A DNA stretch of 62,532 nt, the filler included, from Globobulimina sp. (Eukaryota), in assembly GCA_003354225.1 (NCBI GenBank). It is 35 parts of 35 records of this genome, joined end to end, with 100 filler letters (N's around TTAATTAATTAA, not from the genome) between each part and the next. Parts side by side here need not be neighbours in the genome. Positions count along the whole stretch, not along the records: positions 1 to 1,691 come from PIVH01013066.1; 34 more parts are not named here. One strand, 5' to 3'. A program made the translations under genes and the position numbers. This document shows, in pieces, positions 273 through 26,755 of the stretch (its first letter is position 1; each line of letters opens with the position of its first letter). Below the pieces are notes generated by a model that saw only the letters and a program-made list of their open reading frames with translations, had not been told where the DNA came from and did not search any database.

Positions 273-1691
273 TTAATCTTCAACTTCAATCCTCTCTGTA
301 TTCAATACAAAATCGCATAATTTCTTTAATATATCAATACGCAAAGTTAAATACATAAGTTTGTCTCTTGGATTCCTGTTAATGTCCGGCTTCATCAATT
401 CATCTTGATATGGAAACAATAAATTGTATAACAACTTACTTTAATCCGACTCAAATATATTCTCATAAAATTCATCAATTTCATTTATCTCTCTTCTCAT
501 AATACTACGTTGATTATCATATTTCTCACATATCCAAATGAAATGTTCAACGCTCTCAATGGTTTGTATACGTTTATTTGTTTGGCAGTAATCACAGTTT
601 TTTGTTTTGTAGCCATATTTTCTTTGTCCGTTCAGCGCAATGTGTCCAGATCTTAGTTGTGCGATGAATTTCCATTGCCATTTTTTCAAAGGCGTTGTCC
701 CAACTTGTAGAATTCTACAACATTTCATGTACAAGACTTGTGCATGACTTGTAAACATGGCAACTTGTAGACTGTGGATAACAATATCCACTGTTTCTTT
801 CAAATCTGACGGTGTGCATGTTGAGACAACTGCGAAACTACCTTTCAAATTCTACAAGTTGGGACAACGCCTTTTTCATTTCAAATTTATACGCATCAAT
901 ATATTTCACGTCCCACTCAATCAAGTTCTTAATAAAAATAGCATCCGTATTCTTTTTCTTTTTTCTCACTTTTTTATAATTCTGCCAATTATCCAATGTG
1001 TTATAAAACGACTTTCTTTTATTCTCTTTTTTTACTGCTTGATAACTATAACTATTCCATTCTTGATTTGTATATTCTTTCTCAATCTCATTCCAGTTAT
1101 TCGATCTGAATATATCAAACATTCCTGCTTTGGCCATATCGTCCGCTATTTCGTTCCCTGTCTCGTTATTATGCGCTTTCACCCATATTATATGTACATC
1201 GATATCGAAATCACTTAAGTCGACAATTAAATTGTGCAATGTCTTTATTTTTTGATAAATTATCACATTTTCAATTTCATAACAACCCGCAATCCACTTT
1301 ACCACCGTCTCATTATCAATAATCAAACAGAGATGTTCGGACGTCAGATTTTCGTCTTTTTCGTAGATTTCGTAGCAATATCGATACGTACTGCTAAGAC
1401 CATTGATAGCTGCATCTAATTCGCAGTGATCAATAGAGCTTCTTAGCGCCGTTGAGGCTGCTCCATAAAAGTAGTCACTGTGGCCGTTATCGTACGTTCC
1501 TTCAGTTTGTCGTTTCTTTTCCTTAATTCATCCAAATTGGCTCTCGTCAAATAATAATCCAGATTACAGGACCAAAAGCCTGCACCTCCGAAACCGTCCT
1601 TATTTGAGCCATCTGAAAAAAGTAACTGTATACTTTTTTGATTTACTTGTTTGATATCTGTCGGATCAAAATCATAATAAAATAGGTTATC
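273..1691 (-). mobile_element. Degenerate non-LTR retrotransposon ORF2 3' end: RNase H plus CCHC zinc knuckle
   Basis: Minus-strand motifs FSDGS..GGAG, HCELDAA, IIDNE, WVKAH..GNEIADDMAK, then QLRSGH, CDYC..ESVEHFIWIC and LLFP. Frameshift near 1500, in-frame TAA at 441-443, and interrupted by the insertion at 691-871. Confidence 0.85.
691..871. mobile_element. 181-bp MITE with perfect 24-bp terminal inverted repeats, inserted at AAA|TTT with no TSD (Spy-like)
   Basis: GGCGTTGTCCCAACTTGTAGAATT (691-714) and its reverse complement (848-871); flanks are AAA and TTT; removal restores the host frame (FEMKNLKKWQWKFIAQLRSGH). Confidence 0.8.
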
Positions 1692-1791
1692 NNNNNNNNN
1701 NNNNNNNNNNNNNNNNNNNNNNNNNNNNNNNNNNNTTAATTAATTAANNNNNNNNNNNNNNNNNNNNNNNNNNNNNNNNNNNNNNNNNNNN
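1692..1791. other. Artificial contig spacer N44-TTAATTAATTAA-N44 (first of 34 copies, about every 1.79 kb)
   Basis: Identical 100-bp linker with stop codons in all six frames separates contigs of steadily decreasing length (1691 to 1688 bp). Confidence 0.99.
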
Positions 1792-3126
1792 GGAAGAAAT
1801 AAAGAAATGATTGAAAAAATAAATGAAGAGAAATTAAATTTTATTTATGACAATAAAGTTTTATTTAAATGGAATAGTATTTGTGTAAAGAGATGGATGG
1901 TGGAGAATAGATTGGTTTTGTTATTACCATTTGTGGACAGGTTATTATTTGATGGATTACACTTATTATCGTTTAATATACACAGAGCAGAGAATATATT
2001 ATCAAATGAAGAACTTTTATTGTTTAAGGAAGCGGATTTCTTTAATCTTTTAATAAAATTAAAAATAGGATGCAAACAATTATTAAAAGGTATAGTTAAT
2101 AATTATGTGGATGATTTTATGCTATTTCTCCCACCATCTCAAGTTTTTGCAGAAGAAATATTCGTTGATTTCTGCAAATTTATTAAAAAAGCGGGTTTTG
2201 TTGAAAAGGAGAAAAAGAGGGAGGGTCCAGGAGATTTTTTGGATTTAATTGGTTATGATATTGATACAAATGAAATGTTGGTAAAAATGAAGGAAATTAA
2301 AATTAAAAAGATTGAAGAACTATTAAATGAATTATTAATACATCAAGTGGTTGATTTAGAGACATATGAGTCAATTATTGGCAAATTGCAGGATTTTTCG
2401 TGCCTAAAATGGCCGGGAAAGGCCTTTTTGAAGAGACTTAGAGACAAATTATATAAATATATTAAATTATATGGAAGAAAGAATGTAATTATTATATTGG
2501 AGAGATGGGAGATGTTGGATTTTTTATGGTGGAGGAAATATATTAAAATCATAAATAAAGCATCCATTTTTGATATATGTGATCCGATGTATCCTGAGGA
2601 TGAGATACATTTTGATGCGGCGACTAATGGAAGTCGTGAGTTAGGTTGGTGTCCGGCGATCGGTTGTTGGTATAAAGGCAATTGGTTTGCAATTCCATTG
2701 CCAAATGAATATACAAATATGTATAGATCGTTGAGAACGGAGTATGTTAAGGAATTTGCCATTGCGCACTTTGAAATGTTGGCAATCATCATAGGATTGT
2801 ATACATTTAGACACTTAATCAGAGCGCATACAAAAATATTATTAAAAACCGACAATAAGCACGTTGAGGCCGTCATAATTAATAAAAATTCAGATGACGA
2901 ATTCTTACAAGATGGAGTTCGTTGGTTATGTATGTTCGCTGTGGAGGAATCAATAAATTTGTATATTGATTTTATTAATTCAAAAGCAAATAAAATCCCT
3001 GACTTAGCATCGAGGTTCGACATAAAAGCGTTATTAAAAGTGGCAAAGAAAAAATGTAGAAGAAATGGGTGGAAATTGACTAATTTTTCAAAAAATTGCA
3101 AGTTTCCAAACATACATGAATGGTAA
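1792..3126 (+). mobile_element. DIRS-like (tyrosine-recombinase) retrotransposon RT-RNase H ORF, 5' partial
   Basis: YVDD; LDLIGYDIDT; SIIGKL; RNase H motifs FDAA, IAHFEMLAI, TDNKHV, SKANKIPDLASR resembling DIRS1-type RNase H. Confidence 0.8.
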
Positions 3127-8855: not shown

Positions 8856-8955
8856 NNNNNNNNNNNNNNNNNNNNNNNNNNNNNNNNNNNNNNNNNNNNT
8901 TAATTAATTAANNNNNNNNNNNNNNNNNNNNNNNNNNNNNNNNNNNNNNNNNNNN

Positions 8956-9845
8956 AGGCTCTCGAGTGAGCGTAAGTGTTGCTCCACAGTGTCAAAAAAT
9001 AGACGCAGTTTGACATGACTACTTCCAGCAGTAGGCAAATCTTCTAATGCCGTGTAATGTGCCTCAATAATTGATTGATTTTTGCCAAAACGACCGTTCA
9101 GTAAATCAACAGCAACTTGATAGTTTTCTGCAGTGAATTGAAGGCCAGCCACTGTTTTCAAAGCATCTCCGGTTAATTGAGCTTTCAAATAATGAAATTT
9201 GTTAATTGCCGACATTGCTGCTACATTATGAACTGCTGATGAGAACTCGTCCCAAAAGCCTTTCCATTTGATAATGTTGCCGGAGAATTTCTGCATTTCA
9301 AATTTAGGTAGCTTGACATGTAATGGAGCTTGTGCAGCTGGAGCAGCAGGAGCAGGCATGTGAACCGGAGCAGGTGGTTGTTGTGCCATTGCAGCAACAA
9401 CTGCGGCTGTTACCATCTGAACCAACTGAGCTGGATCTTGTTCGACCTTCACAGGTGGAGGAGGAGCTCTAGGTGGCTGCAGATTAGAAATTCGTTGTTG
9501 AATAGCAGTATGGTAACGACGAATGCTAATCGAAGAATCTTTGAAGTATGAGATGTCATCATCTTCATCTTCAATTTCCTTCTGTAATTCTGCTTGACCC
9601 GCGTTATCTTTCGCAGCAATATAGCACTTATTGACATTTTCGGTTTGAAGCTCGAACTTATTCAACCTATCCTGCAATGTAGCCCAGAGATCGCCTACTT
9701 GAGCTTCGAGTGCGTTTAAATCCCGAGGACGAGCATCTTGAAGAAGCAACCGTTGATCGATGACTGTATTGAGTTCGTTGCGAAGTTTAAAAAGATCCTT
9801 TTTTGCCTTCGTACGAGCAGCCTTGTATCCACCTAATTGTGACAT
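8956..9845 (-). mobile_element. BEL/Pao LTR retrotransposon gag (DUF1759), 3' partial
   Basis: KLPKFEMQKFSGN..W..FWDEF..VH..KFHYLKAQLTGDA..NY..A..LL..RFG. Confidence 0.85.
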
Positions 9846-9869
9846 GATGAATGCAAGAAAATTGCTGGA

Positions 9870-9962
9870 TTCGAAAATTTACCAATAGAAGGAAAAAATC
9901 GAAAATTTCGAAAATTTCGAAAATTGCAAAAAATTTCCGAAATTTTTTGGAAAATCGAATTT
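9870..9962. repeat. Degenerate tandem AAAATTTCG repeats upstream of the BEL/Pao gag
   Basis: Repeated cgaaaattt units visible in the sequence. Confidence 0.6.
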
Positions 9963-15942: not shown

Positions 15943-16115
15943 TTATGTTTCTTAAATTAAAAGCACTTCAGAATTCAGATTAGTTATGCGTTAAAATTCA
16001 ATCAGGACGTAAGTCNNNNNNNNNNNNNNNNNNNNNNNNNNNNNNNNNNNNNNNNNNNNTTAATTAATTAANNNNNNNNNNNNNNNNNNNNNNNNNNNNN
16101 NNNNNNNNNNNNNNN

Positions 16116-17776
16116 ACCACCCATGCTTTAATATTAATAATCCGCTCTATGCGGCCAAATTCAATGAATTATATGCCACAGAGAGCATAAATACGGCCCA
16201 TATCGACATACCAGTTAATATGATAAGTTTCGACGTTGTATCTCCATTCGATGCGAAGCTGACTGCCGTAGCTGACGGTGGCTCCAATATCCAATGCATA
16301 AACTTTAAGACGGGCCTAAAATATAAGAAATATGTATTAAGGGATAAAAGAAAAACAAGGGTACGTACCGGTAGCGGCTATACCACAGTCCACGAATACA
16401 TACCATTTAAAATCAAGTGCGCCAATCGAGTGATAAATACCAAATTTTATATTCTCAACCAACTGCCCGATGATATCAATTATCTCATTGGCCGCTCATT
16501 AATCCACGCATTGGGATACAAATTGACGAAAACCAATACGTCATTTGAGCATAAATCGCACCCTGAATACTACGACGATGAATTTGATGACATGTCGTGT
16601 GAGCTATACCCGTTGGCGACCGACGCAGCACAAATCCACAACTTTGATATTATTATTCATGACGATGCAGCGCGCAAACCTATACTCGATCTGATCCATT
16701 CGTACGCGGACAATATCTCGAAAGGTGGCAGTGGCGCGGACATCGGAAGGATCTCAGGCGAAAAATTCAAAATCATACTGCGCGATGACATAAATGTGGA
16801 CCCAATCGTAAATCCGACGTATTATATAAGCCCGAAATACTATGATAACTTAAAAAAACAGATACAAAACCTATTGGACGATAAACGCATTGAGCCGAGC
16901 TGCAGTCATTGGCGTTCGAGCTTGTTTGGACGCCCTAAGAAGACCGGCGATGTCCGGATCGTATTCGACTTCCGGCGCTTGAATCACTTAACGAAGCCCG
17001 ATCAATTTCCCATACCTAACATACAGAAATTATTACAAAGGTTTAGAGGGAAAAGATACATAACTTCGTTGGATATGAAGGCCGGTTATTGGCATATCCC
17101 ATTGGATGATGACACCAAACCTCTGACTGCATTCGAGTTCGACGGCCAGTTATATCAATGGACCGTAATGCCGATGGGCCTGAAAAATGCGCCAGCTACG
17201 TTTCAGAGAGTGATGACGAAAATATTTGCGGATTTAGACTTTGTGGTGGTGTATATCGACGATATCGCCATTTTGAGCGATAATCTGCCGGAGCACCTAA
17301 AGCATATTCAAACGGTTTTTGAACGCATCAAAAAGCATAATATAAAGCTACGGATTGATAAATGTTTGTTTGCGGCGCAGGAAACTGAGTATTTGGGATA
17401 CTATGTTGACAAATATGGCTATCGCCCAACAGACAAATATAAAAAAAAGGTAATAAACGTACCTGAGCCACGTAGCAGAGCGCAAATGCAGGTCTTCCTC
17501 GGTTTGGTTGCATATTTACACAAATTTATACCTGATTTGCACCAAATTGCGAAGCCATTGTATAAATTATTAGAGACCAACGAGGCATTTGAGATGACGA
17601 CAGTGCGTAGGAAGGCTTTTGAAACATTAAAATTAATGATTCAAAAGGCCGACATATTAATTCATCCGGACCCGAATCGCGAATTACATCTATTTTGTGA
17701 TGCGTCCATTAATGGCATTGGTGGCGTGGTGGGTCAGTACGACGATGACAAAGTATTCCATCCCATCGCGTTTAAT
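16116..17776 (+). mobile_element. Ty3/Gypsy LTR retrotransposon pol (protease-RT-RNase H start)
   Basis: VADGGS protease; RIVFDFRRLN, LDMKAGYWHI, MPMGLKNAPATFQ, YIDD; LFCDAS RNase H; open frame. Confidence 0.93.
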
Positions 17777-18048
17777 ATGATAAGTTTCGACATTGTATCT
17801 CCATTNNNNNNNNNNNNNNNNNNNNNNNNNNNNNNNNNNNNNNNNNNNNTTAATTAATTAANNNNNNNNNNNNNNNNNNNNNNNNNNNNNNNNNNNNNNN
17901 NNNNNTACAGTTTTTTACAGATTATTCAAAATAAAAACATTGAAAGTCAAAATTGAATTGTTAAAGGTTGTGTTTCATCGGGAACCATTAACATTTTATT
18001 ATTAACCTATTTTCCTTCCAAAACTTTACTATTCATTATTTTAGGACA

Positions 18049-25065: not shown

Positions 25066-25551
25066 AGAGAATTATGTAAATATTTACAAGAGATTGAACA
25101 TTATAAACAGAAATGTGATATGTTACAAACGGAGATTAGCGGACATATTAATAATTTATGTGAGGAAAAGTTTAAATGTTGGTTGTGTGGAGTGGTGGGA
25201 TTGAAAGGATATTTATCAGTATTTGTAGAGAATGAATATAATGATATCACAATGGTTGAATACATTGACGACGATGTAATTGTAAATGAATTGGGGATCA
25301 CTAATAAAATGCATATACAATTATTATTGAGGCAGGTCGAGGAATTTAAAGATATGAGACAAGAATTTGGTGCATTAATGGCAGGAAATAAAATTTTAAA
25401 ACAATTTGAACAAAACTTGAATGAAAATGGGATATTAACAATCAATGATTTAAAGAAAGATATAACCACTAAAGCCGATGCAAAGAGAATATTGAAAATA
25501 AATAATCCAAAAGAGATACAACAAATTTTAAGAATGATTAAACTGATTTGA
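25066..25551 (+). CDS. 3' end of a coiled-coil plus SAM domain gene (upstream repeat unit)
   Basis: KCWL..VGLKGYLSVFVENEY..ELGI..MHIQLLL SAM consensus, followed by a second SAM-like block. Confidence 0.65.
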   Translation, partial: RELCKYLQEIEHYKQKCDMLQTEISGHINNLCEEKFKCWLCGVVGLKGYLSVFVENEYNDITMVEYIDDDVIVNELGITNKMHIQLLLRQVEEFKDMRQEFGALMAGNKILKQFEQNLNENGILTINDLKKDITTKADAKRILKINNPKEIQQILRMIKLI

Positions 25552-25976: not shown

Positions 25977-26755
25977 ATGCTCTGCCAAAAATGGCCATGG
26001 CCATCTGAAGGTGCATGGACGAAGAAACGACATCCAAACGCAGAAGAGTGGAATGCGCTGTTAAAAGCACGAAGAAAGAGATTATTACAAAATGTAATTG
26101 TTGATACTCCGCATGGCTCCAATTTGACAGTTGAATGTCTAACAAAAATTAGATTGTGGGATAAATATAAATGTCTTATATTCATTAGATTTAGATTTTC
26201 AAATTGTATGGCTAAATTAGCATCAAATTCAAAAGAATGGTTTGGTAAATTTGGTAATATCAGAAATATTCGTGTGCTTAGCAAGGGAAAATGTGTAGAA
26301 ATAGAATTCGAAAATGAACATTCAACATTGAACGCGATTTATTATTGCAATAATTATTGGAGTACAATGTTCAAAGCACGCTATCAAATAAGTAATTATT
26401 GTTGGCGTTTTTTAATGCCATATGCAAACTGGAAATGTAGCATTGGAAATGTGAACAGCGTTGGAAATGTCGTGGAATACATTCATGGCAAACTCCAGAT
26501 GACGTTGTAACGTTAACGAAACAACAAGTGCTACAAATTGATAATATATATGACGTTGAATATAGGGATGAACGTAAAACTGTTATTGGAAATTATGCAA
26601 AGCAATCGGAGCCACTGCAGGAAATAATGCATTTAAAAAGAGAATTATGTAAATATTTGCAAGAGATTGAACATTATAAACAGAAATGTGATATGTTACA
26701 AACGGAGATTAGCGGACATATTAATAATTTATGTGAGGAAAAGTTTAAATGTTGG
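25977..26755 (+). CDS. Not4/CNOT4-like RRM plus CCCH-type finger plus coiled coil; frameshift near 26447; continues into the SAM part of the next repeat unit
   Basis: EWFGKFGNIRNI..VEIEF..AI..KARY..NYCWRFL..C; a frame change gives CEQRWKCRGIHSW, in frame with ORF 26528. Confidence 0.55.
26639..26755 (+). repeat. 117-bp direct repeat of the contig start (25066-25182), period 1573 bp
   Basis: Identical except one A/G mismatch (25086 vs 26659). Confidence 0.95.

Follow-up and report, generated by a model that had tools for sequence, protein, structure and literature searches.

We found that the 181-bp insert in the first contig of the window is one copy of a multicopy family of non-autonomous elements (MITEs), which enter an AAATTT target between AAA and TTT without duplicating it. 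Very probably these MITEs are internal-deletion derivatives of a long transposon and are moved in trans by its Spy-related, PHIS-type DDE transposase. The window, that is the whole stretch of 62,532 nucleotides analysed, consists of short contigs of the Globobulimina sp. assembly GCA_003354225.1 (genome G000) with 100-base spacers between them. In C13066, the first contig, the MITE sits in a broken minus-strand non-LTR retrotransposon. The features are listed in Table 1. Elsewhere in the window we noted an RT/RNase H-like frame without Pfam match (1744-3126), a DUF1759 retroelement piece (8904-9878) and an LTR-type RT retroelement piece (16064-17857), as well as near-identical direct repeats at both contig ends, once of 117 bases (25066-25182 and 26639-26755) and once of 34 bases (at 16215 and 17772).

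Table 1. Features of the element and of its host retrotransposon, in window coordinates.
Feature	Position	Strand	Remarks
181-bp non-autonomous TIR element (MITE)	691..871	+	perfect 24-bp TIRs; multicopy; full-length copies 113-217 bp
Left TIR, 24 bp, begins GGCGTTGTCCCA	691..714	+	also present in the long C4632 element
Right TIR, 24 bp, complementary to the left at every base	848..871	-	also present at the C5488 end
AAA of the host (left half of the target AAATTT)	688..690	+	42/44 ends; empty sites
TTT of the host (right half of the target AAATTT)	872..874	+	42/44 ends; empty sites
16-bp palindrome spanning the inner boundary of the left TIR	705..720	.	exact; shared by the majority of young copies; not perfect at the C4632 end
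Subterminal zone of ~18-bp repeats re-using the TIR core ACTTGTAGA	730..775 (approximate bounds)	+	unit number differs among copies
RNase H part of the host non-LTR retrotransposon, upstream of the MITE	872..1527	-	PF00075; 17 paralogues at 67-78% identity; copy with other breaks
Cys/His C-terminal part of the host retrotransposon, downstream of the MITE	273..690 (start approximate)	-	reading frame, paralogues

The initial annotation had described a 181-bp insert with perfect 24-bp TIRs between AAA and TTT, and both arms were verified, as was the exact 16-bp palindrome, which is formed at the junction of the left TIR end with the first inner bases. If the adjacent AAA and TTT are included, the inverted repeat of this copy reaches 27 bp. 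Compared position by position, the flanks past these 27 bp are 16% self-complementary, and because the 133-bp interior is only 26% self-complementary, the insert is confirmed as a real element and no fold-back. It is no chance repeat either, because a 21-base pattern from the TIR, taken without the AAA, has 34 exact matches on 30 contigs of the assembly, while the reversed control has 0. Excision of the 181 bp gives FEMKNLKKWQWKFIAQLRSGH on the minus strand and keeps the retrotransposon in frame, as had been claimed. The frame alone, however, does not settle the boundary of the element, because removal of 187 or 190 bp is in frame as well. We therefore did not accept the intact frame as proof of where the element ends; the paralogues settle this.

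The family proposed earlier is indeed multicopy and non-autonomous. A DNA search of the assembly with the element gave matches on at least 40 contigs (40 of 47 candidates scored); the copy number is modest, in the tens as a lower bound. Its members are short, non-coding and bounded by TIRs whose ends are shared with a long element. Seven long-form copies differ from one another by 2-7% and carry varying numbers of ~18-bp subterminal units, according to which they measure 181, 198 or 217 bp; worn, more diverged copies are also present. The family appears to have been active recently, and the subterminal repeats are putative transposase binding sites. When the flanks were tabulated, AAA stood just outside 33 of the 34 exact TIR matches, the pattern itself being free of AAA. 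Over all loci, AAA or TTT was found in the expected orientation at 42 of the 44 scored ends, against 1.4 expected; an end was scored if 10 or more bases flanked it, which left out one end with a 1-base flank. Neither an AT target duplication, as in ISL2EU, nor a 3-bp TWA duplication, as in PIF/Harbinger, was seen in any of nine full copies. The exceptions to the target are a copy on C19737 that is flanked by TTTAAA on either side and two related copies with AAT instead of AAA. Two independent MITE insertions (L006 and L018) lie close to the 3' ends of genes from one high-copy family, which we ourselves read as RCC1-like. Directly to the right of a MITE copy, L045:597-743 is another element bounded by TIRs, whose ends resemble TAGCCCTTGGATATTCACGAAAA.

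Alignment with uninterrupted copies revealed the state of the target before insertion. Twelve of the 17 paralogues of the window retroelement reach the site, and in 11 of these the codon spacing equals that of the window once the 181 bp are taken out; the remaining one is frameshifted at the insertion site. One paralogue (L048) has AAATTT at the very spot. For the insertion on C24321, AAA/TTT is present in 9 of 11 empty paralogues, a comparison that covers 11 of the 40 paralogues listed and 12 comparable left-flank bases. For that on C17911 it is present in 12 of 14 empty paralogues, selected by us from about 32, with both flanks alike. On C21529 the AAATTT is absent from all five paralogues reaching the site, although the spacing is equal, and the empty-site candidate for C21412 diverges after 5 bases. 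Insertion at AAA/TTT adds no target duplication, as the initial annotation had held: the empty paralogous sites of three copies lack it, and target bases are neither gained nor lost, apart from the exceptional C19737, C21529 and C5488.

These empty sites also bear on two other ways of reading the element. It is extremely unlikely that the element itself includes AAA and TTT, which would make its TIRs 27 bp long and imply either a duplication of TTC or the deletion of 6 bp of target. The inverted repeat does extend to 27 bp in almost all copies, TTC stands on both sides of the window copy, and the missing AAATTT in the C21529 paralogues would fit; but AAATTT is already present at empty sites, the net insertion is 181 bp, and a 3-bp duplication outside the 27 bp occurs in just one of the nine full copies, since TTC flanks the window copy alone. 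The variant with a TTC duplication, which had been offered as an alternative, was accordingly dropped. That the MITE is an amplification fold-back or an assembly artefact is hardly conceivable. Several copies are cut short or continue into unrelated DNA, and such individual copies may be chimeras, but for the family an artefact is ruled out: the interior is not palindromic, it is conserved across many sequence contexts, and empty sites were found.

A transposase was detected behind a matching TIR. Contig C4632 has a PF13359 match (E 1e-6) and carries the left TIR of the MITE at 433, followed, in the order AAA, left TIR, three 18-bp units, by a 693-aa ORF (P0001) with an intact-looking DDE triad (D368, D484, E540). 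The contig stops at a probable intron (C4632:2730), and neither a right end for this element nor a SWIM part was found. Its empty site, C1658, is 96% identical to the C4632 flank over 309 bp, continues as AAA/TTT and appears to lie within a glycosyltransferase gene. Read run X1 has the same branch at C4632, with one unitig that links the repeats to the ORF, but it is probably the source of the assembly and hence lends no independent support; read runs X2 and X3 gave no coverage of C4632. Among the PF13359 loci fetched from the assembly, none but C4632 has the MITE TIR, and a TIR scan of JGI metagenomes gave 0 matches.

The opposite, right-type end is found on C5488, where USP and Ulp1 frames (L079, 266-2660) lie behind the TIR and are directed towards the end. 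The flank of C5488 is an interrupted host gene, and because the continuation of this gene is missing from the 2.56 kb behind the TIR, the proteases probably lie inside the insertion. At the junction there is one extra A relative to the empty sites. C4632 and C5488 are different insertions, and the search for a second copy, a middle contig or opposite ends that would join them returned none; a model of the full element takes its left part from C4632 and its right part from C5488. The same USP and Ulp1 domain pair occurs on C19834 (L221), and another Spy-type transposase, P0050, carries an Ulp1 tail.

In the mechanism that we propose, internal deletion of a long cut-and-paste transposon would have given rise to the MITE family. 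The C4632-type transposase would bind the 24-bp TIRs, probably also the 18-bp subterminal repeats, select an AAATTT target and, at its central A^T, join the two ends with no stagger. Nothing would be duplicated because of this unstaggered joining at the centre of AAATTT. We infer mobilisation by a P0001-type enzyme, while the blunt-joining chemistry is borrowed from the Spy literature and would apply here by analogy.

From its sequence, P0001 is predicted to be a PHIS-type DDE transposase distantly related to animal Spy. The proteins most similar to it are unnamed metagenomic sequences from ENA and JGI (31-48% identity), and no P0002 locus was confirmed in metagenomes. Relatives with a name come from bivalves and insects, three of the species being among the Spy carriers tabulated in PMC11304231, and their motifs match Spy-1_CGi by eye. 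Against one bivalve protein, the identity is 26%. We calculated an IQ-TREE phylogeny from 73 sequences and 181 columns, the sequences being chosen by us from a 146-sequence FastTree set and the supports read from the raw Newick. It separates Spy-like proteins from bacterial ISL2 and Harbinger-like proteins (100/100), with references that include no eukaryotic ISL2EU. The Harbinger-like proteins of the assembly fall in the outgroup; several such divergent genes are present (L064-L077), and C17270 (L063) has a canonical HARBI1-like transposase with two stops and a GC of 0.39. P0001 and five unnamed proteins form a branch (99/100) outside the animal-containing clade (99.3/100), the support at the basal branching of the Spy-like tree being weak (1.8/55, 39.8/68). 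Eukaryotic ISL2EU proteins were sought via PF13613 in the assembly, which gave one Spy-like gene only, and via longer proteins from bacterial ISL2, which gave 54 proteins, none recognisable as ISL2EU; the accessible part of the PMC4482050 supplements had no match to an ISL2EU protein motif.

Of the 59 residues that are invariant in nine named animal proteins, P0001 keeps 32 and the outgroups 12-24; for the animal-specific invariant residues, our proxy for the published Spy-specific positions, it keeps 13 of 32. The D-D and D-E spacings of P0001 are 115 and 55, compared with the published Spy pattern D(79-80)D(44-62)E, and the same count gave 82 and 47-48 in two animal proteins. P0001 has no PF13613 match for an N-terminal HTH; its helical N-terminal region aligns with homologues that match PF13613 weakly. 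The structure model, of good confidence (pLDDT 85.6), gave no match at E <= 0.001 in a fold search, the best hits being Tn5 and other transposases, all of them weak (E 0.006 or worse). In the ESM Atlas, DDE_Tnp_4 look-alikes appear in diatom and arthropod clusters (0.90-0.91), which we take as a lead only. The MITE ends have the terminal motif GGCGTTGT in place of the published Spy motif GGANNNNG, from which the Spy-3 and Spy-7_BMo ends also deviate in the available text of PMC4122938. The initial assignment to Spy stands for the target, for the lack of duplication and for the related transposase, but not for the terminal motif and the D-D spacing. Because of these two departures we file the element as a Spy-related variant, Spy-like in behaviour and kinship, and not as a strict Spy.

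The same genome contains sister transposases. C1127 (L085) and C430 (L086) encode Spy-like DDE, SWIM-like and USP (PF00443) parts and branch closer to animal Spy than P0001 does (94.9/95). Their families have ACAGAAC...GTTCTGT ends with variable flanks, and AAA/TTT is present at 1 of 13 ends at most, a TTT at the end of C430 itself; no full copy was found among the loci scanned. Membership in the Spy-like clade does not imply an AAATTT target, because these sister enzymes have ACAGAAC ends largely without AAA/TTT; they are unlikely movers of the MITEs. A blunt A^T insertion is possible for these families too. In L085, L086 and L227-L243 the DDE domain of the Spy-like transposase gene is split by an intron and a USP domain stands at the C-terminus, and inverted arms of 151 bp (76%) in a transposase intron (L086:446-860) are perhaps another small element.

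According to the available text of PMC4122938 and PMC11304231, Spy belongs to the PHIS superfamily and inserts at AAA/TTT without duplication. In the accessible parts of both papers and of PMC9179366 it is confined to invertebrates, the first survey (PMC4122938) cautioning that a homology search could miss other taxa. The excerpts of PMC12730594 place Spy under ISL2EU in Repbase; we also drew on the available parts of PMC10045372, PMC13746701 and bioRxiv 2021.09.26.461848. Our family shares with Spy the target, the mostly non-autonomous copies, TIRs that begin with GG and resemble silkworm Spy ends (8 of the first 12 bases equal Spy-7_BMo), and, with Spy-1_CGi, a DDE_Tnp_4 transposase with QKS..QR, NG.NND and ANESR motifs. 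It differs in its rhizarian host, the probable intron in the C4632 gene, and the USP and Ulp1 region within a right end that has the same TIR. ISL2EU, the sister group of Spy, has AT duplications and a YqaJ ORF in the available parts of PMC4482050 and PMC9179366. It has the GG termini, the DDE_Tnp_4 domain and the AT-rich target in common with our family, but no YqaJ was found in the contig pieces analysed here. PIF/Harbinger elements with their Tourist MITEs show the same Pfam domain and the same pairing of a MITE with an autonomous partner, but have a Myb ORF besides the TWA duplication. Mutator and Zisupton are DNA transposons with captured Ulp1 proteases. Like these, our cut-and-paste element probably carries cysteine-protease cargo, but here a USP (PF00443) is also present, in C1127 and C430 downstream of SWIM-like parts, an arrangement for which a literature search gave no report.

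Host markers in the assembly point to Retaria. In all five polyubiquitin contigs that were fetched, the junction between monomers contains an additional Ala, a rhizarian mark in the available text of PMC3014934. Among 64 Tubulin_C matches are alpha and beta paralogues ~53% identical to the canonical proteins, and retarian alpha2 and beta2 tubulins diverge comparably in the accessible part of PMC5455982; the ESM Atlas gave no lineage for the tubulin. Foraminifera rather than Radiolaria would be our guess. The idea of a protist host is borne out by these markers. The GC of the MITE loci (median 0.33) is like that of the polyubiquitin contigs (0.32-0.35).

Two further readings concern where the transposase and the family come from. 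The transposase may form a PHIS lineage of its own that branches off before Spy, or before Spy and ISL2EU together, with AAA/TTT insertion ancestral or convergent. We regard this as unlikely, but give it real weight: the separate branch of P0001, the 13 of 32 residues kept, a ~33-aa insertion common to P0001 and P0002 and the other ends of the sister families speak for it, while the likeness to animal Spy-type proteins extends past the DDE core, the named matches are Spy-type, and target, lack of duplication and GG ends are as in Spy. Very unlikely is an origin of the family from animal DNA, be it prey or contaminant, or by a recent horizontal transfer from an invertebrate donor. Parts of the assembly are mixed, with an alpha-tubulin contig of GC 0.46 (C30729, L124) and a bacterial-looking reductase frame, by our own reading, fused to a transposase contig (C19602, L090, 1-412), both of which we read as chimeric or foreign pieces, and no single contig carries the MITE together with a lineage marker. 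But the identity of just 26%, the deep branch of P0001 and the agreement in GC all argue against an animal source, and the copies lie within multicopy families of this genome.

In summary, we prefer the reading of a MITE family moved by a Spy-related enzyme in a rhizarian. Spy has been described as the sole eukaryotic cut-and-paste transposon that leaves no duplication, and our searches of the accessible literature gave no report of it from a protist; Repbase, subscription papers and supplements could hold non-animal families. A Spy-type family with empty sites in a rhizarian, together with a transposase of 26% identity, moves the trait across supergroups. Tentatively, and with somewhat less than even confidence, we suggest that Spy-type blunt insertion is old and reaches beyond animals, that the full element of this Retaria lineage combines transposase, USP and Ulp1, and that sister families switched ends and target. 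The divergent enzyme, a minimal substrate of 113-217 bp and sister enzymes with other ends offer material to test the blunt joint, and cgSpy is already under development for gene transfer. The MITE copies interrupt host genes whose empty versions coexist, and if an old non-animal Spy lineage is indeed present, this genome would lend itself naturally to comparing what determines the recognition of AAATTT and the joining of ends without stagger.
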